Shown here one piece after another: positions 1 through 15,925 of a DNA stretch of 16,819 nucleotides. The DNA comes from a virus (Duplodnaviria > Heunggongvirae > Uroviricota > Caudoviricetes). A model generated the notes under the pieces. That model ran no database searches. It saw only the letters and a list, made by a program, of their open reading frames with translations, and was not told the origin of the DNA. Each line of letters opens with the position of its first letter. Within the stretch, counting starts at the first letter, position 1. Made by a program: the position numbers and the translations under genes. Where the stretch lies: IMG/VR virus record IMGVR_UViG_2690316062_000004. One strand, 5' to 3'.

Positions 1-885
1 TTACTTTGCAATGAGATCGGGGTCAACTTCGCTAACCCGGCATCGTTTTGACCGGTTGCCCGTCTTTCTTTTTTTCACTTTCGCCAGTTCTTCCGCGGAG
101 TAATGCGACGCGACATCCAGCCGTCGAAGCCCCATTTTGATGTACTCGCTGTTGATCTCAATACCAATGAATTTTCGTCCGCTGGCGATGGCTACGGCAC
201 CGGTAGTAAAGCTACCGGCAAACGGGTCGAGAACGATATCGCCTGGGTTGGAAGAGGCGAGAATAATGCGTTTCAGTAAGGCTTCCGGTTTTTGCGTCGG
301 GTGGTTCTCATATTCATCCATTAAATAACGCACGCGCGGAAAATCCCAGACGTTACCCGGTACTTTTTGATGATTGTATGGCTGTGGAGGATTTTTGCGA
401 TAATCGATCAACGCGCGCTGCGATCCGGTTTTGGCTTCTACCAGAATAGCATCACCGTTGAATGTGTAGTTCTTTGCGTCTTTCACCATCATCAGGATGG
501 GTTCGTACATGGAGCCGTAGTGTTTTTTCGCCTGTACTCCAGAACTGTCATATGACCAGACGATGCGACTTTTGATGGTAAAAAGCTTGCGGCACTGGAG
601 ATCGATAAAGGGCATGTTTTCCGTACTGTTCATAATGTACATGCTGCCCTGCTTTTTCAGAACGCGGTGGCACTCTGCAATCACTTCAAACAGCCAGTCG
701 ATAAACAGATCTTCTTTCCAGGCTTCGATCAGACCATCAAAATTTTTACCGATGTTATACGGTGGGTCGGCAAAGATCAGATCGACGCTTTCAGTAGGTA
801 GCTTTTTAAGTTCGGCAAGGGCATCACCGTGAATAATGGTCTTAGCTTCATTACCAAACCGGGTCGGTTCACATCCTGTTCTCAT
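1..885 (-). CDS. yhdJ: DNA adenine (N6) methyltransferase, YhdJ-like
   Basis: Translation carries the N6-MTase motif IV DPPY (FADPPYNIG) and a C-terminal motif I-like DPFAGSFTTG, and matches my recollection of E. coli YhdJ along its length. Likely ATG at 885 (GGGAG RBS upstream on the minus strand); the ORF track's 891 would be a GTG start. Confidence 0.85.
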   Translation of the reverse strand: MRTGCEPTRFGNEAKTIIHGDALAELKKLPTESVDLIFADPPYNIGKNFDGLIEAWKEDLFIDWLFEVIAECHRVLKKQGSMYIMNSTENMPFIDLQCRKLFTIKSRIVWSYDSSGVQAKKHYGSMYEPILMMVKDAKNYTFNGDAILVEAKTGSQRALIDYRKNPPQPYNHQKVPGNVWDFPRVRYLMDEYENHPTQKPEALLKRIILASSNPGDIVLDPFAGSFTTGAVAIASGRKFIGIEINSEYIKMGLRRLDVASHYSAEELAKVKKRKTGNRSKRCRVSEVDPDLIAK

Positions 886-908
886 GGTCACTCCCTTTGT
901 GACACCTA

Positions 909-3160: not shown

Positions 3161-3270
3161 TACATTCAACAGCATTCAACAGCATTCAACAGCATTCAAC
3201 AGCATTCAACGACACGTAATGACACGTTATGACACGTAACGGCACCCGACAGCACCTAACAATACCTAGC
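3161..3270. repeat. Eleven 10-bp phased direct repeats (five AGCATTCAAC-type, then degenerate GACACGTAAT-type units)
   Basis: Read directly: tACATTCAAC, AGCATTCAAC x4, GACACGTAAT, GACACGTTAT, GACACGTAAC, GGCACCCGAC, AGCACCTAAC, AATACCTAGC, with strict 10-bp periodicity. Confidence 0.8.
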
Positions 3271-3310
3271 TCCATCCACGGTCCCTACTAGGTCATTACT
3301 TGCTAACTTT

Positions 3311-3373
3311 TTCCATCTTTGTTCATGGTTATTCATCACTGTTCATCAGCGTTCATCATTGTTCATCTTTGTT
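3311..3373. repeat. Six 10-bp phased GTTCATC-type repeats (iteron-like, one mismatch from TGTTCACC)
   Basis: ttccatcttt / gttcatggtt / attcatcact / gttcatcagc / gttcatcatt / gttcatcttt. TGTTCATC differs by one base from the TGTTCACC units clustered after the primase gene. Confidence 0.7.
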
Positions 3374-3626
3374 ATGAACAATCCAAGGTGAATCAAATCG
3401 TTAAAGAACGGTGATCTTCGGCGAGTTATTGAAATTCATGATTTTTTCTCTCGAGACAGCCGTTGAAATTACTGTGGAAACTGTTTTAAACAGGGGAGCG
3501 TTATCTTGATGGAATTTCTATCTTTCAATGGAATTGCATGTTCTTTTAAAGGATTCCAGAATCAATGGAAATTCTGGTCGTTTATCCACTAATCTCTTCG
3601 CATAACATTGAAACAGTGGAGGCAGC

Positions 3627-3911
3627 ATGCAAAATATAACCTTTACCCCGCCAAATCCTGAACAGCGCCGCACCCTTTTAGAAGAGTACGGCTTTAAGTT
3701 TGATCGCCGAATCCGTGAAGATGAATGCAGCGAGATCACCAGTCTTTCCCGTTCCAGCCGCTGGAAGATGGAGCAGCAGGGGCGCTTCCCTCCGCGCTGT
3801 CACTTTGGCCGCAATAGCTGTGCTTGGCTTCTTTCGGATGTGCTCTGGTGGGTTCGTAATCCGCCAGCAGTAGAGAACGTCAATAACCCATACAGCCGTA
3901 AATCTGCTTAA
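3627..3911 (+). CDS. alpA: AlpA-family (prophage CP4-57-type) transcriptional regulator
   Basis: 94 aa; the SLSRSSRWKMEQQGRFPPR segment is the typical AlpA/Vis-like helix-turn-helix signature. GGAGG RBS at 3619..3623 before the ATG at 3627. Confidence 0.8.
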   Translation: MQNITFTPPNPEQRRTLLEEYGFKFDRRIREDECSEITSLSRSSRWKMEQQGRFPPRCHFGRNSCAWLLSDVLWWVRNPPAVENVNNPYSRKSA

Positions 3912-3931: not shown

Positions 3932-4624
3932 ATGAAAAAGATTAATGCCCTCCACGGGCAGGGATTCGCTCACCCTGTAGCCAGCCAGCACGATATTTCA
4001 GCGAACCGTAAACAGGTTATTTCCGGTGACTGGTCGCCCATTAATCGCGGTGAATTTACGCTTGCCGATCTGGGGTTGCGCCACAACGGTAACGGGCTGG
4101 TGTGGCTGCGTTCCGGCGTGTCCGTGCATGAGGCAGACCATGATGTAGGGATAAGCGGCAAGGACAAGACCAAAGGAAGGGTTAATGGTCTTCCTTTTGA
4201 ATTTGTCGGCCAGTGGCAGGAATACCCGACTAAACGCAGCTTTGCCGTTTCAGTATCTACGGAACTACGCCGCCAGTATTACCCGGACGATGCCACTTTT
4301 GGTAAGGCGATGCGTGAGGCGGGTTATATCCCCGTGCGCACCCGTAAATTGACCGGGAAGCTGGCAAGTTACTGGCTGTATAGAGTAACGGGTAACGATA
4401 AGGGGGTATGCACAGCAGAACCCACGCCCTGCAAGGCTTCCGCGCCAGTTGTCCAGACCATATCTAAGCCTCATCCGTGGTTTAAACGTGTGGCACTCGA
4501 TGGTAAATGGCAGTACGTCTACGCAGATCACATCCGCTTTCTGACGAAAAAGCGTCATCGCGTCGATGGTGTTCGGGTTCAGGGGTATACCGCTGGCGGG
4601 CTGAAAGTGGAGGCTATTGTATGA
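3932..4624 (+). CDS. Hypothetical protein (230 aa), backbone gene of unknown function
   Basis: Long ORF with backbone-like GC content directly after alpA. No motif recognised. Confidence 0.55.
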
Positions 4625-4734
4625 CAGGCAAAACAAAGGCGGCCATGCCGGGCCGCCAGTGCAATACCGCTTTACAGAAACATCGCCAGATTACCAGGCT
4701 TGCCGCTGGTGGTCAAACCTTGAGCCGACGAAAT

Positions 4735-4772
4735 CCGTACGCACAAATTAACCGCGTACGTTTAACGTACGG
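4735..4772. promoter_or_regulatory. CGTACG-based palindrome cluster, possible operator
   Basis: Perfect 8+1+8 inverted repeat CGTACGTT-t-AACGTACG at 4755..4771, plus a further CCGTACG half-site at 4735..4741. Confidence 0.3.
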
Positions 4773-4875
4773 AGATCGAGACAAAGGCGAACAGTATTCG
4801 GGTTCATGGCAAAACAACGTTAAACGTGGTTTAGAGGCTCCGACGAAAAACGTAGAGAGCTGCGAAGATAACCAA

Positions 4876-4945
4876 CCCTCTTTAAGAGGGGAGCCTCTGC
4901 ACAACTCATTAATAGTTGCGCAAAACAGACCCTTTTTAAGAGGGG
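4876..4945. repeat. Two copies of a 16-bp palindromic unit, CCCTCTTTAAGAGGGG and CCCTTTTTAAGAGGGG
   Basis: 15 of 16 positions identical at 4876..4891 and 4930..4945; each unit is a (near-)perfect inverted repeat. They lie just 3' of the minus-strand small gene. Confidence 0.5.
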
Positions 4946-4976
4946 CAGTCCACAGCATTACGGGGAGTAACCCTGT

Positions 4977-5150
4977 TCAGCCTTTTGGCTCGATGCCGCG
5001 CTTATCAAGTTCACGGCGCAAAAGGCGTTTTATCCATCCCGACTTATTATCGTCACCGTCTTCTTTCATCGCTAAAGCGAGCCGCTCTGACAGTTCTTTA
5101 TCGAGTCTGAGCTGCACAACATGGCGCTCTTTATTTTCGCTTGTTGACAT
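4977..5150 (-). CDS. Small ribbon-helix-helix-like DNA-binding protein (57 aa), candidate repressor
   Basis: Internal ATG at 5150 preceded on the minus strand by GGAG. The peptide [57 protein letters not shown] has the strand-helix-helix pattern of Arc/CopG-type proteins. The 38-aa proline-rich extension in the ORF track (start 5264) looks non-coding. Confidence 0.45.
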
Positions 5151-5192
5151 TGTCAACTCCTGTGGTCTAGTCTGTAGTGGAGTTGACAATGT
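5147..5192. promoter_or_regulatory. Perfect 14-bp inverted repeat with 18-bp spacer, covering the RBS and start codon of the RHH gene
   Basis: ACATTGTCAACTCC (5147..5160) and GGAGTTGACAATGT (5179..5192) are exact reverse complements. TTGACA hexamers occur at 5144..5149 and 5183..5188. Confidence 0.6.
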
Positions 5193-5289
5193 ACTACATT
5201 GCATGACTTTTAGTAAAGCAAAGCCCGGCAGTGGTGGAACACTAACCGGGCCTCTAACCACCACCGTTAGCGAAAGTAACGAGGCAGCT

Positions 5290-5481
5290 ATGAAAGATCA
5301 TATCACACACCCGCAAGGGCGGAAGTCCTACATCTGGCGTTTTCTTGCACTGAGCGCCATCGGTCGCAACGTCATTCACATCACAGCTAACACTGAGCGC
5401 GAAGCCCGTGAGCAATCACCGGCTGGCTGCGTGATGGTATGCGCTGGCCGTCTACCAGTTCAGGAGGTTCGCTATGCGTGA
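5290..5481 (+). CDS. Hypothetical small protein (63 aa), first gene of the replication operon
   Basis: ATG at 5290 with GAGG five nt upstream; stop overlaps the next ATG (ATGCGTGA). It is the only plausible part of the 324-aa track ORF. Confidence 0.35.
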
Positions 5482-5880: not shown

Positions 5881-6058
5881 AATCAACGATAGCTGGAAGG
5901 ATAAGCGCGGCGAACTGGTCACGGTGAAAGATAACGCATTTAACCGGGTAACGTTTGTGCGTGATGGTTACGATTTTCCGTGCATCTTTCCGCTGGAAAG
6001 GTTCGTTAAAGAGTTCACTTTCGTTAGCTGGGGGCTGAAAGATGAAAAACGCGCCTAA
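5867..6058 (+). CDS. Hypothetical small protein (63 aa)
   Basis: GTG start with GGGAGG RBS at 5855..5860; the 3' end overlaps the primase start. Confidence 0.45.
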   Translation: MRNPEINDSWKDKRGELVTVKDNAFNRVTFVRDGYDFPCIFPLERFVKEFTFVSWGLKDEKRA

Positions 6059-7811
6059 TGTGAAAACCCTCCCGCGCGACAAAATGGAGGAGGCCATCAT
6101 CTTTGCTGGAACGGGAGCATGGAAAGCCGCTCAGGATTACCAGAAAGGCAAGGGCGAGCATGGAGACGATGTTCCACCTGTGGTTCTGGATCACACCCAA
6201 CTGGCGGAATTGCCACACCTGCGCATTGTTGATAAAGGCCGTCGGTTTGCTCGTGTCTGTCAGGCCGGACTTATCGAGCAAAACCAAATCAGCATGATTG
6301 CAAATAAGCTGTGTGAGGCTGGCGTTACCAATGCTGAGTTTATCAACGAAAAAGGTGAGAAAGAGGACTGGACGCCATTAATGAAGCGTTTGGAAGACGA
6401 GCCCCTAATGGTGACTACGAGGGGTAGTGCTACGCCAGCGCTTAACCAGATGGGAGCCAGCCAGCGCGGGGAGGTTCTGCTTGCTCATTACGATGGCAAT
6501 CTGGCGATCCATGCTGATTCTGACACGGTTCATCATTACAACGGCGTGGTGTGGGTTCCGCTTTCGGATAAAGAGCTACAGCGGGAAATGGCGCAAATTT
6601 TTATTGATGCCGAAGTCGCCTATTCGCAGAACGCGATTAAATCCGCTGTCGATACAATGAAGCTGGGTCTGCCAGTGATGGGTAATACAGCCCGAAATCT
6701 TATTGGTTTCAGCAACGGGGTTTTTGATACCCGGTTAGGCCAATTTCGACCGCATGATAAAAAGGACTGGCTTATCGTTGCGAGCGAATTGCCATTCAGC
6801 GAACCAGCAGAAGGAGAGACTCTGGCAACCCATGCGCCGAACTTCTGGAAATGGCTCCGCCGCTCAGTGGCGGATAATGACCGAAAAGCAGACCGCGTAC
6901 TGTCTGCGCTGTTTATGGTGCTGGCGAACCGGTACGACTGGCAGCTGTTTCTTGAGGTAACGGGGCCGGGCGGAAGTGGTAAAAGTGTTATGGCTGAGAT
7001 CTGCACGATGCTGGCGGGCAAGGCCAACACCGTATCAGCGAGCATGGCGGCGCTGGAGAACCCAAGGGAAAGGGCGCTGGTAGTGGGCTATTCGCTGATT
7101 ATCATGCCGGATATGACCCGGTACGCTGGCGACGGCGCAGGGATTAAAGCTATCACTGGCGGGGATAAGGTAGCCATTGACCCTAAACACAAAGCGCCAT
7201 ATTCAACCCGTATTCCAGCGGTGGTGCTTGCCGTCAATAACAATGCCATGTCGTTCAGCGACAGAAGCGGGGGGGTTTCCAGACGGCGGGTGATTTTCAA
7301 CTTCTCCGAAGTGGTACCGGAAAACGAACGCGATCCTATGCTGGCCGAGAAGATTGAAGGTGAGCTGGCTGTAATCATTCGCCACCTGCTCACTCGCTTT
7401 TCCAGGCAGGACGAAGCCAAACAGCTTTTGCATGAGCAGCAGAAATCAGAAGAAGCGCTGGCCATCAAACGTGAAGGGGATTCACTGGTGGACTTTTGCG
7501 GCTACCTGATGGCTTCGGTGGTTTGTGATGGAATGCTGATTGGCAATGCCGAGATCGTGCCATTCAGCCCGCGCCGTTATCTGTATCACGCTTATCTGGC
7601 TTATATGCGGGCTAATGGTCTGAGCAAGCCGGTATCGCTGATGAGGTTCGGTACGGATATGCCAGGCGCAATGGCTGAATATGGCAAGGAGTACCAGAAG
7701 CGCAAAACAAAACATGGCATAAGGTCAAACGTCACGCTTCACGACGACTCAGAAGACTGGATGCCTATGTGGAATGATACATCTCATAACAGTGGAGAAA
7801 ATCAAAAGTAA
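6042..7811 (+). CDS. P4-family primase/replicative helicase (alpha-like, D5/SF3 NTPase)
   Basis: 589 aa; Walker A GPGGSGKS with downstream Walker B-like acidic stretch (LIIMPDMT), the usual layout of phage/plasmid primase P4-family C-terminal domains. Followed immediately by an iteron cluster. Confidence 0.85.
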   Translation: MKNAPNVKTLPRDKMEEAIIFAGTGAWKAAQDYQKGKGEHGDDVPPVVLDHTQLAELPHLRIVDKGRRFARVCQAGLIEQNQISMIANKLCEAGVTNAEFINEKGEKEDWTPLMKRLEDEPLMVTTRGSATPALNQMGASQRGEVLLAHYDGNLAIHADSDTVHHYNGVVWVPLSDKELQREMAQIFIDAEVAYSQNAIKSAVDTMKLGLPVMGNTARNLIGFSNGVFDTRLGQFRPHDKKDWLIVASELPFSEPAEGETLATHAPNFWKWLRRSVADNDRKADRVLSALFMVLANRYDWQLFLEVTGPGGSGKSVMAEICTMLAGKANTVSASMAALENPRERALVVGYSLIIMPDMTRYAGDGAGIKAITGGDKVAIDPKHKAPYSTRIPAVVLAVNNNAMSFSDRSGGVSRRRVIFNFSEVVPENERDPMLAEKIEGELAVIIRHLLTRFSRQDEAKQLLHEQQKSEEALAIKREGDSLVDFCGYLMASVVCDGMLIGNAEIVPFSPRRYLYHAYLAYMRANGLSKPVSLMRFGTDMPGAMAEYGKEYQKRKTKHGIRSNVTLHDDSEDWMPMWNDTSHNSGENQK

Positions 7812-7819
7812 TGGGAAAA

Positions 7820-8049
7820 GTGTTCACCACTATTCACCGTGGATAAAATCGTCTATTTAACAGATAGTTAAGGGGTGAACACTTTTTATTGAAGTGTTCA
7901 CCAAGTATTCACCTGTTCACCTTTAAAGGGTTTTTCTTTTAAAAGGTGAAGGGTTAGGGTGAATACTAGTGAATACTTAAAATTATAGTCTTCACCCTGT
8001 AACCCAATGAATTTAAATAGGAAAAATGCAAAGGTGAACAGGTGAACAC
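7820..8049. repeat. Iteron cluster (TGTTCACC / TATTCACC / CTTCACC and complements), putative replication origin (ori/crr)
   Basis: At least eleven copies in both orientations, e.g. GTGTTCACC 7820..7828, TATTCACC 7831..7838, GGTGAACAC 7874..7882, GTGTTCACC 7895..7903, TGTTCACC 7914..7921, GGTGAATAC 7959..7967, GGTGAACAGGTGAACAC 8033..8049, with an AT-rich tract at 7921..7945. Confidence 0.65.
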
Positions 8050-8082
8050 TTAAACGTATATTTCTATTTTTTGAGGCTACAG

Positions 8083-8427
8083 ATGGAAATTTTAGGTAAT
8101 CATAAAGACAAGTTTCAGGGTATCCAATTTCTGCATAGTGCAATCGAAGAACTGAATGAGAAAACTGGAGTAACGCTGACAGACTATCTGGCTTTAAGGG
8201 CTTTTGTTCTGGCTGAGCGAAGGGAAAATCAGGATTACATTGACGCTATGGATGCACCATATGCTGACTTACCAGATGAACTGCGTTCTTACATTGAACT
8301 TCTCAATGATGTTGCTGCACAACTGTCCAATCCAGCACGTTCAAATGGAGATTTGAGGTCAATCATTTATGATGCGAGAATATCCAGCGGAAACGCTGTG
8401 TCTCACTGGCTTAATGTCGAAAGATAA
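8083..8427 (+). CDS. Hypothetical acidic protein (114 aa), first gene of the AT-rich cargo cassette
   Basis: ATG at 8083 with GAGG at 8074..8077 (the track's 8071 would be a TTG start). AT-rich; no motif recognised. Confidence 0.55.
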   Translation: MEILGNHKDKFQGIQFLHSAIEELNEKTGVTLTDYLALRAFVLAERRENQDYIDAMDAPYADLPDELRSYIELLNDVAAQLSNPARSNGDLRSIIYDARISSGNAVSHWLNVER

Positions 8428-8450
8428 TAAAGTCTACAGAGGAAGAGTTA

Positions 8451-9296
8451 ATGCGAACTAACGATAATTTACAGATGATCAATAAACATCTGGAAGGAGA
8501 GTTTGAACGGCAATTGTTTGACTCTGCGATCTACAATCTTTTAGATGTAAATAATCAACTTCGCTTCAGTAATTATGCCTATGCACTTAGAGAACTATTT
8601 TTACACGTCATAAAACGCATGGCACCTGATAAAAATGTTCAGTCATGTGATTGGTTCCCTGGCTTGAATGAAAGAGAGCAGGTCTCAAGAAAAGACTCTT
8701 ACAAATATATAATCCAGGGTGGGTTAAGTGATGAATATGTCAGGGAAGAGCTTGATGTAAATGTTGCTGGGGTTTTTCCGAGGTTACGTGACGCATTCAA
8801 TTCATTAAATAAATTTACTCACATCAGCGAAAATATTTTCCCAATTAATGATGATGCTGGCCTCCAAATGGTCGGAGAGGTTGAAGGCTGTATCAGCGCT
8901 CTTTTCACCAAGCTTGATGAGTGTCATAAGGAGATAATTAATAAGCTATATGAAGCCGTTAGTGAGGCCGCGATTCATAGTTCGATAACTGAAACTGTAA
9001 CATCAATTGATATTTTATCGACACACAGTTCGGTTGATGAAGTGTATGTTGATGATGTTAAAATAGTAGAAATAAATGATACTGAAATAGTTTTCTCTGT
9101 TATTGGTTCTGTAGGTGTCGGGTTGCAATGGGGATCTAATTCCGATTTGCGAAATGATATTGGTGCTGTAGGTAGTGAGACATTCCCATTTACCTGCGAG
9201 GTGAGAAGTCCAGTGTATGCCCCTGAAAGTTTAGAGTGTGATGAAGGGGCATTCCATGCAGATACTTCAAGCTGGTGGGAAGGGTATTACGACTAA
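8451..9296 (+). CDS. Hypothetical protein (281 aa), second gene of the AT-rich cargo cassette
   Basis: ATG 24 nt after the upstream stop; AT-rich; followed by an intrinsic terminator. Contains an R-x4-H stretch (RELFLH), which is only weak evidence for any fold. Confidence 0.6.
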   Translation: MRTNDNLQMINKHLEGEFERQLFDSAIYNLLDVNNQLRFSNYAYALRELFLHVIKRMAPDKNVQSCDWFPGLNEREQVSRKDSYKYIIQGGLSDEYVREELDVNVAGVFPRLRDAFNSLNKFTHISENIFPINDDAGLQMVGEVEGCISALFTKLDECHKEIINKLYEAVSEAAIHSSITETVTSIDILSTHSSVDEVYVDDVKIVEINDTEIVFSVIGSVGVGLQWGSNSDLRNDIGAVGSETFPFTCEVRSPVYAPESLECDEGAFHADTSSWWEGYYD

Positions 9297-9333
9297 CAAG
9301 TGTAAATTATTTGTCCTCGCGCTTATTAGTGCT

Positions 9334-9360
9334 TAGCCCGATTAAATTCGGGCTTTTCTT
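9334..9360 (+). terminator. Intrinsic terminator after the cargo cassette
   Basis: Stem AGCCCGA (9334..9340), loop TTAAAT, stem TCGGGCT (9347..9353), then TTTCTTT. Confidence 0.6.
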
Positions 9361-9528
9361 TATTATTTTCATGTATATGTTGAGAAGTGGCACTCAGACG
9401 TGAGCCGCCACTGGCCGTTAAGTCAAGCTGTAGCGAGTACAGCCTGCGAGAGGCAGAAAAAGATTTAACGGCCTCCCCCCTAAGCGCTGGTTTCACGTCT
9501 TAACATTAATTGTTACGGAAACCACTCC

Positions 9529-10695
9529 ATGAAGAAACTACTCGAATTACGCCAGCAGAAAGCCGCACTCAAAACACAGATGCGTTCCATGCTGGACAAA
9601 GCCGACACCGAAAAGCGCAGCCTGAACGAAGAAGAGGGCAAAAAGTTCGATGAACTCCGCGCCCAGGCTGATGCGCTTGAAGTTGAAATCACCCGTCTAG
9701 AAGCCGTCGCCGACGATCAGCGCAATCTGCCTGGTACTTCCGTTGAAGGTGAGCCAGTAAGCAACGACGAGCTGCGCCACTACATCATGACAGGTGATAC
9801 CCGTTCTCTCTCCACGCTGGTGCAGGCTGATGGCGGCTATACCGTTATCCCTGAGCTGGACAAAGAGATTATGCGCCAGTTGCAGGATGATAGCGTGATG
9901 CGCTCCATCGCAACGGTGAAGACCACCAAAACCAACGAATACCAGAAGCTGGTATCTGTGGGCGGCACTACCGTTAATCGTGGTACCGAAGGTGAGGCAC
10001 GTACCGAAACCAGTACGCCGAAGATGGAGCGCGTTGATATCAAACTCAACCCGATCTACGCCTACCCGAAAACCACTCAGGAGATTCTCGACTTCTCCGA
10101 GGTGGATATTTTGGGCTGGCTGTCTTCTGAAATTGCCGACACCTTCACCGCGACCGAAGAAAGCGACTTTGTGAACGGCGACGGTGATAAAAAATCCAAA
10201 GGCTTCCTGTCTTACCCTCGCGCGGCCACTGCCGACAAAACCCGTCCGTTCGGTACGCTGGAGAAGATGGAAGCGGCTGACGTTTCCTCTGATGGCCTGA
10301 TCGACCTGCTGTATAAGCTGAAAGCCAAATACCGCAAAAACGCCGTATGGGTGATGAACTCCAACACCGCAGCCAAACTGCAAAAGCTGAAAAACGGCAA
10401 CGGGGATTACATCTGGCGCGATCGTCTGGTTGCCGGTTCTCCCGATACGCTGCTGGGCCGTCCTGTTCAGTATCTGGAAACCATGCCGGATGCGGAGGCA
10501 GGTAAAGCATTCCTCGCGGTAGGCGACTTCAAGCGCGGCTATTTCATCGTGGATCACACCACTGGCGTGCGTACCCGCCCTGACAACATCACCGAGCCGG
10601 GTTTCTACAAGGTGCATACCGATAAATACCTGGGCGGTGGTGTGGTGGACTCCAACGCCATCAAGGTGCTTGAGCTTTCAGGCTCCGGTTCCTGA
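9529..10695 (+). CDS. Major capsid protein, HK97 fold, with N-terminal coiled-coil scaffold-like domain
   Basis: 388 aa. The N-terminal ~100 aa are highly charged and helical (delta-domain-like), followed by a capsid-type body. Its position directly before a prohead protease and portal supports the call. Confidence 0.85.
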   Translation: MKKLLELRQQKAALKTQMRSMLDKADTEKRSLNEEEGKKFDELRAQADALEVEITRLEAVADDQRNLPGTSVEGEPVSNDELRHYIMTGDTRSLSTLVQADGGYTVIPELDKEIMRQLQDDSVMRSIATVKTTKTNEYQKLVSVGGTTVNRGTEGEARTETSTPKMERVDIKLNPIYAYPKTTQEILDFSEVDILGWLSSEIADTFTATEESDFVNGDGDKKSKGFLSYPRAATADKTRPFGTLEKMEAADVSSDGLIDLLYKLKAKYRKNAVWVMNSNTAAKLQKLKNGNGDYIWRDRLVAGSPDTLLGRPVQYLETMPDAEAGKAFLAVGDFKRGYFIVDHTTGVRTRPDNITEPGFYKVHTDKYLGGGVVDSNAIKVLELSGSGS

Positions 10696-10705
10696 TTTGA
10701 CGTTT

Positions 10706-10726
10706 AAGGGGCTGCGGCCCCTTTTT
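10706..10726 (+). terminator. Intrinsic terminator/attenuator after the capsid gene
   Basis: GGGGC-TGCG-GCCCC hairpin (10708..10721) followed by TTTTT (10722..10726). Confidence 0.55.
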
Positions 10727-10746
10727 GCCCTCTGTGGAGTCCAGTA

Positions 10747-11307
10747 ATGAAAACAATCGATTTTGAAATCCGTACCTCCGAAGTGAGCGCCAGCAACAAA
10801 AAGCTGGTGGGCTATGCCGTGCGCTGGAACAGTCTCTCTGAAATTATCTGGGACGAGTTCCGCGAGCAGTTTGCGCCGGGAGCGTTTAAAGACAGCCTGG
10901 CATCCGGTAGCGATGTGCGTGCGCTGTACGAGCATAACTATACCCAGCTGCTGGGCCGCACTAAATCCGGCACGCTGGTGCTGTCAGAAGATGATACCGG
11001 GCTGCGCTTCGAGCTGACCCCGCCGAATACCCAGCTTGGCAACGATGTGCTGGAGCTGGTGGAGCGCGGGGATATCTCCGGCATGAGCTTTGGTTTCCGG
11101 GCGCTGAAAGAGGCGTGGGATATTGCTCAGTCTCCATACCTGCGCACTGTTACCGCTGCCGAACTGCGGGAGATTACCGTTACCTCTATGCCTGCTTATC
11201 CTGAGTCTGGCGTGGAAATCGCGCACCGTTCGCTTTTCTCCCAATATCCTGAACTGCGCCGGGCTGGTGATAACCGCCGCCGCTGGGCTGAATTAGCGGG
11301 GCTCTGA
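10747..11307 (+). CDS. Prohead serine protease, HK97 family
   Basis: 186 aa, with N-terminal GYAVRW and the SFGF segment typical of HK97-type prohead proteases. Confidence 0.8.
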   Translation: MKTIDFEIRTSEVSASNKKLVGYAVRWNSLSEIIWDEFREQFAPGAFKDSLASGSDVRALYEHNYTQLLGRTKSGTLVLSEDDTGLRFELTPPNTQLGNDVLELVERGDISGMSFGFRALKEAWDIAQSPYLRTVTAAELREITVTSMPAYPESGVEIAHRSLFSQYPELRRAGDNRRRWAELAGL

Positions 11308-11308
11308 T

Positions 11309-12544
11309 ATGTGGAATATCTGGCCGTTTGGCCGTAAGTCTGAACCCTCTGAGCAGCGCAGCATGACCATTGATGAGTTTCTGGCGATGGCAGGGATTCC
11401 AAATACCGGATCAGGCGAATATGTGTCTGCGGGTACTGCGGAATCTCTGCCGGCGGTCATGAACGCCGTGTCAGTTATCAGTGAGGCGGTGGCAACAATG
11501 CCCTGCTACCTCTACCGCGTGCGCAACGATAACGGGCGTGAGGCGCGAGAATGGCTGAGCAATCACCCGGTGGATTTTCTCCTGAACGAGCAGCCGAACG
11601 ACTGCCAGACGCCTTATCAGTTTAAACGCACGATGATGCGCCATTGTCTGCTGAACGGTAACGCCTATGCGGTGATCCAGTGGGGCCGCGACGGCCAGCC
11701 GCAATCCCTGCACCCGTATGCGCCGGGGGCGGTTGTTCCTGAGCGTATCGGCCAGCATAAGTACAAATACACCGTTACAGAGCCGTTTACCGGGGCTGTG
11801 CGCACCTATCTACAGGAAGAGATTCTGCACCTGCGTTACTCCACCGATGATGGCTTTCTGGGGCGTTCGCCTATTACTACGTGCCGTGAGGCGCTGGGGT
11901 TAGGTCTGGCCCAACAGCGCCACGGTGCCAGCATTATGAAAGATGGCATGATGGCGGCGGGCGTCGTCACTACTGCTGAATGGCTCGACAGCGTGAAGGG
12001 TAAGCAGGCTCTGGACGCACTGGAGCGCTACAAAGGTGCCAGAAATGCCGGGAAAACGCCGATCCTTGAAGGTGGCATGGACTACAAGCAGCTTGGCATG
12101 AGCAATCAGGATGCCGAATGGCTGGCGTCGCGCCGGTTCTCCATTGAAGACATTGCCCGCATGTTCAATGTGTCGCCCATCTTCCTGCAGGAATACAGCA
12201 ACAGCACCTACAGCAATTTCAGCGAAGCGAGCCGCGCCTTTCTCACCATGACCATGCGCCCGTGGCTGGCGAACTTCGAGCAACAAATCAAATCTGCTTT
12301 GCTGGTGGCCTCTCCGGTTCCAGGAACCCGCTATCAGGTGGAGTTTGACTCTGCTGACCTTCTCCGTGCCACACCTACCGAGCGTTACGCCACTTATGAG
12401 CGAGGCATTAAGAACGGGATCATGAACCCGAACGAAGCCCGTGAGCGCGAGGGGATGCCGCCGCGTAAAGGTGGTGACGAATTCAGCCAGGCATGGAAGC
12501 AGGAAGTGAAGATCAGCAAAGACGGCAAGGAAGGTGACGCATGA
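11309..12544 (+). CDS. Portal protein, HK97 family
   Basis: 411 aa; size, composition and position (between protease and adaptor) fit HK97-type portals; translationally coupled to its neighbours. Confidence 0.85.
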   Translation: MWNIWPFGRKSEPSEQRSMTIDEFLAMAGIPNTGSGEYVSAGTAESLPAVMNAVSVISEAVATMPCYLYRVRNDNGREAREWLSNHPVDFLLNEQPNDCQTPYQFKRTMMRHCLLNGNAYAVIQWGRDGQPQSLHPYAPGAVVPERIGQHKYKYTVTEPFTGAVRTYLQEEILHLRYSTDDGFLGRSPITTCREALGLGLAQQRHGASIMKDGMMAAGVVTTAEWLDSVKGKQALDALERYKGARNAGKTPILEGGMDYKQLGMSNQDAEWLASRRFSIEDIARMFNVSPIFLQEYSNSTYSNFSEASRAFLTMTMRPWLANFEQQIKSALLVASPVPGTRYQVEFDSADLLRATPTERYATYERGIKNGIMNPNEAREREGMPPRKGGDEFSQAWKQEVKISKDGKEGDA

Positions 12545-12879
12545 GAGCCGGGGGGCTGAGAAGCCGCGACACTATTCGGGTATTCACTACCCACAGGGAG
12601 CCGTCCGGTCAGGTTGTTCAGGTCTGGGAAGACGGGGAAACCATATGGGCTGAGGTTAAGGGGATCAGTGGCCGAGAGTTAATGGCGTCAGGTGCCGAGG
12701 TTGCCGAAGCGACGATCCGCGTTTGGGTGCGTTTCCGCCGTGATATTACCGCAGCCAACCGTCTGAAAGTGCTTACTGGCCCGTTTGCTGGCAGCACTCT
12801 CAATATTATCGGGCCTCCTATTCCTGATTCGGAAGGTACTCGGCTGGAAATTCTCTGCAAGACAGGAACGGAAAAATGA
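12541..12879 (+). CDS. Head closure / head-tail adaptor protein
   Basis: 112 aa; ATGA overlap with the portal stop; pattern resembles small head-tail joining proteins. Confidence 0.65.
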   Translation: MRAGGLRSRDTIRVFTTHREPSGQVVQVWEDGETIWAEVKGISGRELMASGAEVAEATIRVWVRFRRDITAANRLKVLTGPFAGSTLNIIGPPIPDSEGTRLEILCKTGTEK

Positions 12880-13169
12880 CAGCAGAAATCACCCTGGATG
12901 AAGCAAAGCTGCATTGCCGTATTGATGATGATTACGAAGATACGTTGATACAGGCGTACATCGATGCGGCGCTGGAGGTTTGCCAGAAGCATATCGGCAA
13001 GCGGTTTGATAACGGGCTGGAGTTTACGCCAGCTATCAAGATTGGCTGTCTGATGTACGTATCTCAGCTGTACGAGTACCGCACGATGATTGGTGATACC
13101 GACGCCAAAGAGATACCGATGGCTGTCTCTGCGTTGTGGTCTGTCTATCGTGATGTGGGGGTGTACTGA
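12876..13169 (+). CDS. gp6-like head-tail connector protein
   Basis: 97 aa; N-terminus ITLDEAKLHCRIDDDYEDTLIQAYIDAA matches the gp6-like connector signature. Confidence 0.7.
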   Translation: MTAEITLDEAKLHCRIDDDYEDTLIQAYIDAALEVCQKHIGKRFDNGLEFTPAIKIGCLMYVSQLYEYRTMIGDTDAKEIPMAVSALWSVYRDVGVY

Positions 13170-13612
13170 TGCCGTGGCAACCACTACGCCGGTGCAATGA
13201 GCCGGGATGTAATAAACGGGTGAAGTCTGGCAAGTGTGACGAGCATAAGCGGGATGCCCGCCGACAAAGCGACAGCCGAAGAGGTACGCGAACAGAGCGT
13301 GGTTACTCCAACCGCTGGGGCGAATACCGTCGTCATTTTCTAAAAGCTAATCCGCTGTGTGTCCATTGTCTCAAGGCTGGCGTCTATGCATCGGCAACTA
13401 TCGTCGATCACATCATCCCTATCGAGGGTGAAGCTGATGTGCTGTTCTGGCCCGCCAGTAATCACCAGTCGTTATGCGCTGCCTGTCATGGACGGAAGAC
13501 AACCACAACAGACCCGGTGACGAAGCAGCAGCGTAAAGCCGGTAAGTTCCGCGAGCAGGAAGAAGCAGCACGTCATCGCACCGACTGGATCTATGAGGCA
13601 AACAATGACTGA
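13169..13612 (+). CDS. HNH endonuclease (packaging-associated)
   Basis: 147 aa with Cys clusters (CNEPGC, CVHC, CAAC) and a histidine in the DHIIPI segment; TGATG overlap with the upstream gene; sits immediately before the terminase genes. Confidence 0.8.
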   Translation: MPWQPLRRCNEPGCNKRVKSGKCDEHKRDARRQSDSRRGTRTERGYSNRWGEYRRHFLKANPLCVHCLKAGVYASATIVDHIIPIEGEADVLFWPASNHQSLCAACHGRKTTTTDPVTKQQRKAGKFREQEEAARHRTDWIYEANND

Positions 13613-13887
13613 GCAGGAACAGCAGCGGCTGATTAGTGGGCTGATAAAGCAGCGTGAGTCATGGCAACCAGCCAGACAGAGAGCGCATAAGAAGCCCGTA
13701 GCAAAGCGCATGAGCCAGCGTGACCGGGAGCTTATGGAATGCTTTCGCAACCGCTGACAGGCCGAATGGACGGGGTGGGGGAGGTTTTCAGGACAAACCC
13801 CTCTCAGCGAGGAACCACCCGCCCCCTCAAATTTTTACGCACGGTGATTTTTTTGAAAATAAAACGCGACGGAAACGAGAAATTTTT

Positions 13888-14244
13888 ATGGCAAGACCAC
13901 CCAAACCGCCAGCTTACCTTGATGAGTTAGCTGCGCAGCAGTGGAAAGCGAAGGCGAAGCAACTGGCGGAGCGCGGGGATTTGACTCCCGCCGACTGGAA
14001 CAACCTTGAGCTTTTTTGCGTCAACTATTCGATGTACCGCAAAGCCGTGGAAGACCTTGCCAGCCGTGGGTTCAGCATTGTTAACAGCCAGGGCGGTGAG
14101 AGCCGAAATCCGGCGCTGAGCGCAAAGGCCGATGCTGAAAAAATCATGATTAAAATGTCGTCGCTGCTGGGCTTTGATCCGGTAAGCCGCCGCCGGAACC
14201 CGGTGGAAACGGAGGAGGAAGACGAGCTTGACCGTCTGGAATGA
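13888..14244 (+). CDS. Terminase small subunit (P27-like)
   Basis: ATG at 13888 gives the 118-aa protein MARPPKPPAYLDELAAQQW..., typical of small terminases; the GTG at 13720 in the ORF track would add a glycine-rich, non-protein-like leader. Confidence 0.7.
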   Translation: MARPPKPPAYLDELAAQQWKAKAKQLAERGDLTPADWNNLELFCVNYSMYRKAVEDLASRGFSIVNSQGGESRNPALSAKADAEKIMIKMSSLLGFDPVSRRRNPVETEEEDELDRLE

Positions 14245-15889
14245 GTACGCAAACGCGATAAAAACGGGCGAAATTCCGGCCTGTAAGCGCGTAAAACAGG
14301 CCGTGGAAAGGTACTTTTCAGACCTGAATGACCCCCGTTATGTGTTCGATACGGCGACCGTAGAGCGGTTTATTGCGTTCTCGCGGCTCTGTCCTCACGT
14401 CAAAGGCCCGTTGCGCGGGCAGTCTATCGAGCTGGAGCCGTGGCAGCAGTTCGCCTTTGCTAACCTGCTGGGCTTTAAAGTCAGGGAGTCAGGCCGCCGG
14501 AAGTATAGCAGCGCCTTTATTGAGGTGCCGCGCAAGAATGCCAAATCCACCGTGGCCGCCATGCTGGCTAACTGGTTTCTGGTGATGGAGAAGGGCCAGC
14601 AGGATATCTACACGGCGGCGGTAAGCCGGGATCAGGCCCGAATCGTGTTCGACGATGCCCGCCAGATGTGCCTGCTGTCAAAACCGCTGAAAAAGCGCGT
14701 CAGTATTCAGGCACACAAGGTCATTTTCCCGAAGAGCAACAGCCTGTTAAAGCCGCTGGCGGCAAAAGCGGCCACCATTGAAGGGACTAACCCCAGCCTG
14801 GCGATTGTCGATGAGTACCACCTTCACCCGGATAACGGCGTTTATTCCGCGCTTGAGCTGGGTATGGGCGCCCGTCCTGAGGCAATTTTGTTCGCCATCA
14901 CTACCGCCGGGAGTAACGTAGTCTCGGCCTGTAAGCAGCATTATGACTACTGCTGCCAGATTCTGGCAGGGGAAGAGAGCAACGATTCTCTGTTTGTCCT
15001 GATATACGAGCTGGACGACGAAATTGAGGTTGAGCAGCCGGAAATGTGGATTAAGGCCAACCCTAACCTGCATGTGTCTGTTGACGCAGCGAAGCTGGAA
15101 TCCACCATCCAGAAAGCGCGGGGGGTACCGTCGCAATGGGTGGAAATGCTCACCAAACGTTTCAATATCTGGTGTCAGGGCTCCACGCCGTGGATGGGGG
15201 CTGGCGCGTGGGATGCCTGTGCACTCGACTATAACGAAGAAGAGCTGGTCGGAATGGAGTGTTATGCCGGGTTTGACCTGTCCTCAACCAGCGATATCAC
15301 CAGCGTGAGTTACGCTTTCCCGTTTGACAGGGAGATCCGGCTTCTGACCCGCCACTATCTACCGGAAGCGCAACTGCTTAACGTCGCCAACAAAAACCGC
15401 GCCATCTATCGCCAGTGGGTAAAAACGGGCTGGATACGCACCACACCCGGCGACTGTATCGACTATGACCGCATTCGTGACGATATCCTGCGCGATGCTG
15501 AAACCTTCAATATTCGGCTGGTGGGCTTTGATACGTGGAACGCTACGCATCTGCGCACCCAGCTACAGGGTGCGGGCCTTGATGTTGAGCCATTCCCGCA
15601 AACCTATCTCAGGTTCAGTCCGGTAGCGAAATCCTTTGAAGTGTTTGTTAACCGCAGGGTAGTGCGCCATCGCGGTGATCCGGTTCTGGCCTGGGCGATT
15701 GGTAACGTGGTGATGGAGTCCGACGCCAATGCCAACATCAAGCCCAACAAAAAGAAATCCTCCAACAAGATAGATCCGGCTGTGTCTGCGTTAATGGCGT
15801 TTGGCACCTTCCAGGCTGAGCACGAGGATTTTGCATTTGATATGAGTGACAGTCACAAACAACGGCTAGCTGATTTCAATGGGCTTTGA
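14228..15889 (+). CDS. Terminase large subunit
   Basis: 553 aa with the overall layout of large terminases. No in-frame ATG near the 5' end, so a TTG start at 14228 overlapping the small subunit is assumed; the start is uncertain. Confidence 0.85.
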   Translation: MTVWNEYANAIKTGEIPACKRVKQAVERYFSDLNDPRYVFDTATVERFIAFSRLCPHVKGPLRGQSIELEPWQQFAFANLLGFKVRESGRRKYSSAFIEVPRKNAKSTVAAMLANWFLVMEKGQQDIYTAAVSRDQARIVFDDARQMCLLSKPLKKRVSIQAHKVIFPKSNSLLKPLAAKAATIEGTNPSLAIVDEYHLHPDNGVYSALELGMGARPEAILFAITTAGSNVVSACKQHYDYCCQILAGEESNDSLFVLIYELDDEIEVEQPEMWIKANPNLHVSVDAAKLESTIQKARGVPSQWVEMLTKRFNIWCQGSTPWMGAGAWDACALDYNEEELVGMECYAGFDLSSTSDITSVSYAFPFDREIRLLTRHYLPEAQLLNVANKNRAIYRQWVKTGWIRTTPGDCIDYDRIRDDILRDAETFNIRLVGFDTWNATHLRTQLQGAGLDVEPFPQTYLRFSPVAKSFEVFVNRRVVRHRGDPVLAWAIGNVVMESDANANIKPNKKKSSNKIDPAVSALMAFGTFQAEHEDFAFDMSDSHKQRLADFNGL

Positions 15890-15925
15890 TAGTGCTTGAA
15901 CTTTTCAAATTGTCACTGTAATTCT

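Follow-up and report, generated by a model that had tools for sequence, protein, structure and literature searches.

What is the function of the dense cluster of short repeats that lies directly downstream of the rep gene in this integrated element? The stretch of DNA that we analysed (16,819 bp, hereafter the window) carries 12 octamers of the TGTTCACC family within positions 7821-8048, six on each strand. The first-pass annotation had noted at least 11 such octamers in both orientations, together with an AT-rich tract, and had placed the start of the cluster 9 bp past the stop codon of the preceding gene. Both observations hold, given that the stop codon (TAA) occupies 7809-7811 and the first octamer begins at 7821, which leaves a gap of 9 nt. 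On the basis of the comparisons described below, we judge it highly probable that an integrated capsid-forming PICI (cf-PICI) uses positions 7812-8075 as its origin for vegetative replication, and that the adjacent Rep protein binds this origin. Origins of this kind are already known, and the window provides a clear instance of one and not a new system.

The repeats occur far beyond chance and are more constrained than the DNA that separates them. Six exact copies of TGTTCACC are present in the 16,819-bp window, where 0.56 would be expected, and all six fall within 7821-8048; this number was reached in none of 200 shuffled sequences. Likewise, all nine exact copies of TRTTCACC in the window lie within the cluster, compared with approximately 0.014 expected per 230 bp from base composition. 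Three degenerate octamers (GGTGAAGG, AGTGAATA and TCTTCACC) align in register with the iterons of related loci. Among 12 related TGTTCACC-type loci, mean column conservation is 94% for iterons (72% of columns invariant) versus 75% for spacers (25% invariant; Mann-Whitney p=6e-14), and the TTCACC core is 96.5% conserved within the TGTTCACC group. The cluster region is also richer in A+T than the window as a whole (65% versus 51%), with spacers reaching 69-85%.

The arrangement of the sites is orderly. The entire module (7812-8075), as delimited by homology with relatives, consists of the iteron array and a conserved A+T-rich right border. Iterons 1 and 2 (TGTTCACC and TATTCACC, 7821-7838, + strand) are direct repeats with a 10-bp spacing that is kept in register in relatives, and they are followed by an A+T-rich spacer (7839-7873, 69% A+T) whose length is conserved and whose sequence is variable. 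Iteron 3 is inverted (7874-7881, - strand; GGTGAACA when read on the + strand), and iterons 4-6 form a direct triplet of TGTTCACC, TATTCACC and TGTTCACC (7895-7921, + strand). A central A+T-rich tract (7922-7944, with 81% A+T over 7922-7942) separates this triplet from an inverted one (iterons 7-9, 7945-7975, - strand), and we regard the tract as a candidate melting site. The inverted triplet, again in register with relatives, comprises the degenerate iteron 7 (GGTGAAGG, 7945-7952), GGTGAATA, and the degenerate iteron 9 (AGTGAATA, 7968-7975). Beyond it lie a single direct, degenerate iteron 10 (TCTTCACC, 7989-7996, + strand), a second A+T-rich spacer (7997-8032, 72% A+T) that includes the elements TAAC...ATGAAT, and iterons 11 and 12, an abutting inverted pair with the sequence GGTGAACAGGTGAACA (8033-8048, - strand). 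A post-iteron motif beginning with CTTAAACGTATATTT (8049-8075, + strand) has a mean column identity of 84%. Thus, direct sets at 7821-7838 and 7895-7921 and inverted sets at 7945-7975 and 8033-8048 bracket A+T-rich DNA.

Some additional features of this region deserve mention. The TAAC...ATGA(A/T)T elements, which are located between iterons 10 and 11, are kept in most of the relatives examined and across iteron types (the comparison covered the TGTTCACC-type loci, L011, L018, L022 and L023), and a weaker echo is visible in the crr region of phage P4 (L001, 4520-4560). These elements may represent a host-factor site or a structural element that is independent of Rep specificity. The origin region contains no match to the IHF consensus with one mismatch or fewer, and no cluster of GATC sites. 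A DnaA-box-like sequence (TTATCCACG, 7838-7846, - strand) matches at 8 of 9 positions, but it is not conserved and occurs at chance frequency, and we therefore reject it as a host-factor site. When treated as single-stranded DNA, the top strand of 7812-8082 is predicted to fold strongly (z=-8.8) and has cruciform potential because of the inverted iterons. Such folding probably follows simply from how the sites are arranged, and we do not take it as evidence for a functional hairpin.

The first-pass annotation assigned the array to a P4-type satellite, and this assignment has to be revised. Judging from its gene content, the element is an integrated cf-PICI. Pfam matches between 1156 and 15889 identify genes for an integrase (1156-2376), an AlpA regulator (3627-3911) and Pri-Rep, followed at 9529-15889 by an HK97-type capsid protein, prohead protease, portal, head completion and connector proteins, an HNH protein, TerS and TerL, all on the + strand. 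This set corresponds to the published cf-PICI gene set (PMC10085698). The element has its own capsid, portal and terminase genes, and Pfam and PHROGs scans of its ORFs gave no matches, in the ORFs covered, to the P4 capsid-hijacking genes Sid, Psu and Delta, or to Ash (epsilon). Tail or lysis genes were not seen in the window. The rep region is 91% identical to that of a 16.5-kb induced element recorded as 'Escherichia phage vB_KppS-Ant'.

Small ORFs of the element include one for a DUF4222 protein and one with an Icd-like C-terminus. The latter ORF (324 amino acids, 4507-5481) resembles the host cell division inhibitor Icd in its C-terminal part (NF033153; PHROG 'transcriptional repressor' families). 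Because of a 118-nt overlap with the 230-amino-acid ORF that precedes it (3932-4624), its true start is probably located further downstream. At the left edge of the window is a chromosomal gene for a yhdJ-like adenine methyltransferase (1-891, minus strand). A search for attachment sites in the two flanks (1-1155 and 15890-16819) found neither a tRNA gene nor any direct repeat of at least 14 nt; the only sequence shared by the two ends is the 10-mer TTTAATATTC, at 1021 and 15925.

The gene immediately upstream of the array (6042-7811, + strand) has an intact ORF that codes for a 589-amino-acid Pri-Rep, or alpha-like, initiator protein with Pfam matches to D5_N, DUF5906 (SF3 helicase) and Pox_D5. 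The protein is composed of an N-terminal domain (amino acids 1-133), a D5_N and SF3 helicase region, and a C-terminal origin-binding winged-helix domain. Its helicase and origin-binding portions are 51% identical to amino acids 327-775 of P4 alpha, and the helicase core also matches the SaPI Rep structure 7ola_A (E=1.7e-9). The winged-helix domain (amino acids 479-575, encoded by 7476-7766) was detected by a phmmer match to PDB 1ka8_A (E=2.2e-25), the crystal structure of the P4 origin-binding domain. Within this domain, a predicted beta-hairpin 'wing' (amino acids 552-562, QKRKTKHGIRS; 7695-7727) covaries with iteron type, as detailed below.

Structure prediction adds some detail on the two ends of this protein. 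The N-terminal 133 amino acids (6042-6440) align only to PICI Pri-Rep proteins, including that of EcCICFT073, carry no Toprim, Zn-ribbon or Prim-Pol signature, and are confidently predicted by AlphaFold to adopt a small alpha/beta fold (pLDDT 74-89). A Foldseek search of the PDB returned no significant match for this domain, and 1KA8 was the only significant match for the full-length model. The latter model has a mean pLDDT of 42 and is confident at amino acids 1-120 only. It places a strand-turn-strand after the third helix, at the wing segment, in a winged-helix domain with pLDDT values below 50. Because confidence is low there, the 'wing' can be assigned only provisionally, by homology with 1KA8 and from the general topology of winged-helix domains.

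The first-pass annotation had termed this gene a primase/helicase. The helicase and origin-binding parts of that description agree with the match to P4 alpha, whereas the primase part does not stand. P4 alpha matches Zn_Ribbon_Prim and Toprim_3, and neither a Zn-ribbon nor a Toprim domain was found by Pfam in the 589-amino-acid protein. Thus, 'primase' is an inherited label that the sequence does not support.

A closely comparable origin has been characterized experimentally. In Gram-negative PICIs, ori is located immediately 3' of pri-rep and consists of two iteron sets around an AT-rich region (PMC6092414). A plasmid carrying rep and ori of EcCICFT073 replicates, a rep deletion derivative yields no colonies, and ori deletion derivatives were constructed and tested in parallel (PMC6092414). 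Pri-Rep of the window shares 41% identity with EcCICFT073 Pri-Rep (C_RS06985) over 585 aligned residues (E=5e-155), and the homology extends over the full length, including the N-terminal domain. Iteron order, orientation and spacing in EcCICFT073 are nearly superimposable on those of the window array over the 230 bp past the stop codon, except that an inverted pair takes the place of the inverted triplet. In both elements, accessory genes follow the origin. The cores differ (TGTCTACC and TATCTACC in EcCICFT073 versus TGTTCACC in the window), and the wing segment differs to match. The two elements also belong to different kinds, given that EcCICFT073 is a cos-type PICI whereas the window element is a cf-PICI with its own capsid, portal and terminase genes. 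Because of the protein identity and the common site layout, we consider the window array to be a homolog of this experimentally validated origin.

Phage P4 provides the second comparison. The octamer was proposed in the first-pass annotation to be the type I iteron bound by P4 alpha, and indeed TGTTCACC is annotated as 'ori type 1 repeat' in the P4 record, where it is present both in ori (9310-9413) and in crr (4291-4590). A literature search for the octamer itself matched only unrelated primer sequences. P4 alpha binds origin repeats through its winged-helix domain, after which unwinding and priming take place (PMC4234260). P4 and the window thus have in common the octamer, a homologous SF3 helicase and winged-helix domain, and a near-identical wing motif. 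Moreover, one of the crr units of P4 is comparable in layout to the window array: an inverted iteron is followed by three direct ones, an AT-rich stretch and two further inverted iterons.

The resemblance to P4 concerns the iteron sequence and the origin-binding domain, and does not extend to the bipartite ori/crr organization or to the primase domain. P4 has two arrays, ori and crr, that are approximately 4.7 kb apart and are both needed, whereas the window has a single array of 12 sites. Among the related loci, two clusters are found in P4 and the P4-like locus L028, and one cluster is found in loci of the cf-PICI or PICI type, as it is in the whole window element. In P4, crr consists of a 120-bp direct duplication with a terminator in front of it, and ori carries type II decamer repeats. 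At 7700-8200 of the window there is no long direct duplication (the longest repeat family is 33 nt, with 61-73% identity), and no type II-like repeats are present beside the array. P4 alpha also carries an N-terminal Zn-ribbon and Toprim primase that the window protein lacks. Finally, the alpha stop codon and a terminator immediately precede crr, and P4 ori is upstream of an AlpA/Vis-like gene. The array that follows alpha in P4 is thus crr and not ori. Because crr is not an initiation site, position alone is no proof that initiation occurs at the window array. Taken together, the P4-annotated iteron, the adjacent homolog of the alpha-type origin-binding domain, and the homology of layout and position with EcCICFT073 ori make it very likely that the first-pass annotation was right to propose a satellite replication origin here.

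A more distant relationship is seen with the staphylococcal system. SaPI Rep is a self-loading helicase, and SaPI iteron specificity is allele-specific. The initiators of the SaPI Rep/ori system (Rep structures 7OLA and 7OM0) and of the window are both SF3-type helicases, although SaPI Rep is distant, has a different DNA-binding domain and different iterons, and functions in Gram-positive hosts.

Given these precedents, we propose the following sequence of events. After induction, the C-terminal winged-helix domain of Pri-Rep (6042-7811) would bind the 12 iterons of the TGTTCACC family, with the beta-hairpin wing segment setting the sequence specificity. The opposed iteron sets would bracket the A+T-rich tracts, where the SF3 helicase is expected to multimerise and melt the DNA, loading itself as has been described for P4 alpha and SaPI Rep. 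Host polymerase would then copy the excised element for packaging. In this scheme, we infer Rep binding, the melting site, helicase self-loading and the source of the primer. Because the window protein has no recognisable primase domain, the P4 mechanism is not fully transferable.

Comparison with 26 related loci from different Enterobacterales indicates how Rep might recognize its sites. One array follows the rep gene in 24 of the 26 loci and in EcCICFT073; the exceptions are the P4-like locus L028 and L019, where part of the array has been lost by an internal deletion. The arrays of relatives start 10-35 nt past the rep-like stop codon and usually end 224-270 nt past it. This architecture is conserved and the core octamer is specific to lineages, with six types represented: TGTTCACC (the window and 13 loci), TGTCTACC (L010, L011, L014, L022 and L024), TATCTACC (L025 and L026), TCTCCACC (L016, L017 and L027), TGTCCACC (L023) and TGTCCGCC (L018 and L021). 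Iteron type tracks a C-terminal protein segment of approximately 40 amino acids that follows a conserved 'EYGKEY' sequence. When the alignment is grouped by type the sorting is perfect, although the independent switches behind it are limited in number (we saw at least three) because the loci share ancestry.

Three near-isogenic pairs exhibit the same relationship, in that their proteins diverge at the wing segment and tail and their iterons differ likewise. L020 and L027 (TGTTCACC and TCTCCACC) are 95% identical overall and approximately 100% identical over amino acids 39-540, but only 43-50% identical in the last approximately 40 residues. L023 and L021 (TGTCCACC and TGTCCGCC) are 92% identical overall versus 40% at amino acids 561-580. 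The window protein and that of L011 (TGTTCACC and TGTCTACC) are 95-100% identical over most of amino acids 136-495 versus 35% at the C-terminus. P4 alpha and the window protein have the motif KRxTKxGI(R/Q)(S/T)N in common and differ in the preceding helix. Given that P4 alpha uses the same iteron despite this different helix, the wing segment is the part of the domain that is pointed to, and we consider it the likely specificity determinant.

Not all of the related loci appear intact. The rep gene of L015 is frameshifted near its C-terminus (approximately 7200-7305) and its ori is intact, and in L019 (array at 7573-7663) an internal deletion fuses iteron 4 to the last iteron. Terminator-like hairpins are found directly 3' of the array in L013 and L024.

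To the right of the array, homology with relatives is lost at approximately 8063-8075 and is found again from 9301 onward, shortly before the capsid gene. These breakpoints define an accessory slot at 8076-9300. This slot is an empty interval of approximately 80 bp in L004 and vB_KppS-Ant, and it holds different genes in other relatives. Because its contents vary between these homology breakpoints, the cargo cassette named in the first-pass annotation is real: the slot is an accessory hotspot, and the origin forms its left boundary. Two genes occupy it in the window, both on the + strand. The first codes for a 114-amino-acid protein (phrog_7232; 8083-8427) with a GAGG Shine-Dalgarno sequence, and the second (8451-9296) codes for a 281-amino-acid protein resembling pPIWI-associated nucleases (Pfam PF18165 and PF18166; PADLOC Aga_Nuclease, 1e-84). 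There is no Argonaute or pPIWI gene in the window, and the two proteins may form a stand-alone or novel defence pair.

The distance between the last iteron (ending at 8048) and the ATG of the first cargo gene (8083) is 34 nt, in line with the figure of about 30 bp given in the first-pass annotation, and the first downstream gene begins 34-61 nt past the last iteron in 15 of 25 loci. Because this gap is short and no terminator was found between rep and the array in the window, cargo transcription must either begin inside the terminal iterons or pass through the whole array from upstream. There is a sigma-70-like site that, with TGAACA as the -35 element (8035-8040, inside iteron 11), a 16-bp spacer and TATATT (8062), matches the consensus at 9 of 12 positions. 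Such matches are not clearly enriched (5 found versus 2.3 +/- 1.4 expected), and conservation of the motif does not extend to every lineage. The post-iteron motif (8049-8075) could be either the right border of the origin or the -10 region of a weak promoter; it may belong to the origin because P4 crr units also end in A/T runs. From this geometry, the earlier suggestion that origin occupancy could be coupled to cargo expression is plausible.

These features invite other explanations for the array. Its position directly after an alpha-like gene is that of P4 crr, and the array could accordingly be a crr-like cis-acting enhancer of initiation at a second Rep site, as in P4, where ori lies upstream of an AlpA/Vis-like gene. 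The window offers a candidate for such a site at 3300-3395. Three adjacent repeat arrays with 10-bp phasing are located upstream of alpA at 3163-3395, namely five copies of CAGCATTCAA (3163-3212), three copies of GACACGTAA (3212-3240) and, in the position of P4 ori, the candidate array (3300-3395), in which five phased TGTTCATC-like units are accompanied by an inverted copy and by GGTGAATC. Furthermore, TGTTCATC is a tolerated variant within the main arrays of L007, L008 and L020, and among E. coli genomes the upstream array occurs only in those that also have this TGTTCACC-type rep-ori. However, it is the int/alpA module with which the upstream arrays travel (L004, L011 and six E. coli genomes), irrespective of Rep type. 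L011 pairs an identical upstream array with a TGTCTACC-type Rep and ori, and the TGTTCACC-type loci L007, L012 and L015 have no upstream array at all. Because 3300-3395 does not track Rep type, we reject it as a required Rep site, although it may have an auxiliary role in this particular element. In addition, none of the related cf-PICI or PICI loci repeats its own iteron type in a second cluster, which is seen only in P4 and the P4-like locus L028, and in EcCICFT073 rep and the downstream ori alone sustain plasmid replication (PMC6092414). We therefore consider an enhancer with initiation elsewhere to be improbable.

The proximity of the terminal iterons to the cargo genes raises a different possibility, that the array is mainly a transcriptional operator through which Rep controls a cargo or packaging promoter, or that it serves autoregulation or a handcuffing type of copy limit, with origin activity being secondary or absent. 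The iterons of plasmid replicons often double as operators. In the window, the promoter-like sequence TGAACA (8035)-16-TATATT (8062) overlaps iterons 11 and 12, the motif that follows them is 84% conserved, and no terminator was found after rep; in the 15 of 25 loci with a closely spaced downstream gene, a promoter must overlap the iterons unless there is read-through. This promoter match is limited to 9 of 12 positions in a region without clear enrichment for such matches, a T of its -10 element is replaced by C in L003, L006, L007 and L013, and EcCICFT073 and L025 have no equivalent. In L013 and L024, moreover, the array is directly followed by a terminator-like hairpin. An arrangement of twelve sites that face both ways within 230 bp and are separated by A+T-rich spacers is origin-like, with which a dual role would be compatible, and we think it quite improbable that regulation is the main function. 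Finally, decay among relatives, as in the frameshifted rep of L015 and the deleted array of L019, is what might be expected if the repeats were a chance or low-complexity feature, or the remnant of a dead replicon without current function. This explanation seems exceedingly improbable to us: the enrichment is several hundred-fold above expectation, the rep ORF of the window is intact, the iterons are selectively conserved relative to the spacers, protein and iterons switch in coordination, and the record of the close relative vB_KppS-Ant derives from an 'induced prophage', which indicates that this relative was mobilised. We thus return to the view that the array is very probably the replication origin of the cf-PICI.

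This analysis corrects two labels: the protein called 'DNA primase' has no recognisable primase domain, and the element called 'P4-type' is a cf-PICI. It leaves the current picture of PICI replication unchanged. A more speculative proposal, about which we are doubtful, is that cf-PICI Rep and P4 alpha cross-react, given that the iteron TGTTCACC and the wing motif are common to both, and that the terminal iteron pair doubles as an operator or -35 element of the accessory-slot promoter. If so, P4 alpha could fire or titrate the cf-PICI origin and cf-PICI Rep could act on P4 ori and crr, resulting in cross-activation or incompatibility of co-resident satellites. P4-like, PICI and cf-PICI elements are reported to co-occur less often than expected in E. 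coli (PMC10085698), and such interference might contribute to this pattern. If the terminal iterons are an operator, expression of the defence cargo would follow Rep occupancy.

More generally, the comparisons pin down the origin and the likely specificity determinant for a widespread satellite family, with more than 5,600 Rep homologs; approximately 43% of complete E. coli genomes contain related rep sequences. To engineer or cure such satellites, a defined rep-ori cassette could be employed. The six iteron types and six wing variants, including the near-isogenic pairs, represent a natural experiment on the recognition code of winged-helix domains, and this series could be used to predict which satellites cross-replicate.
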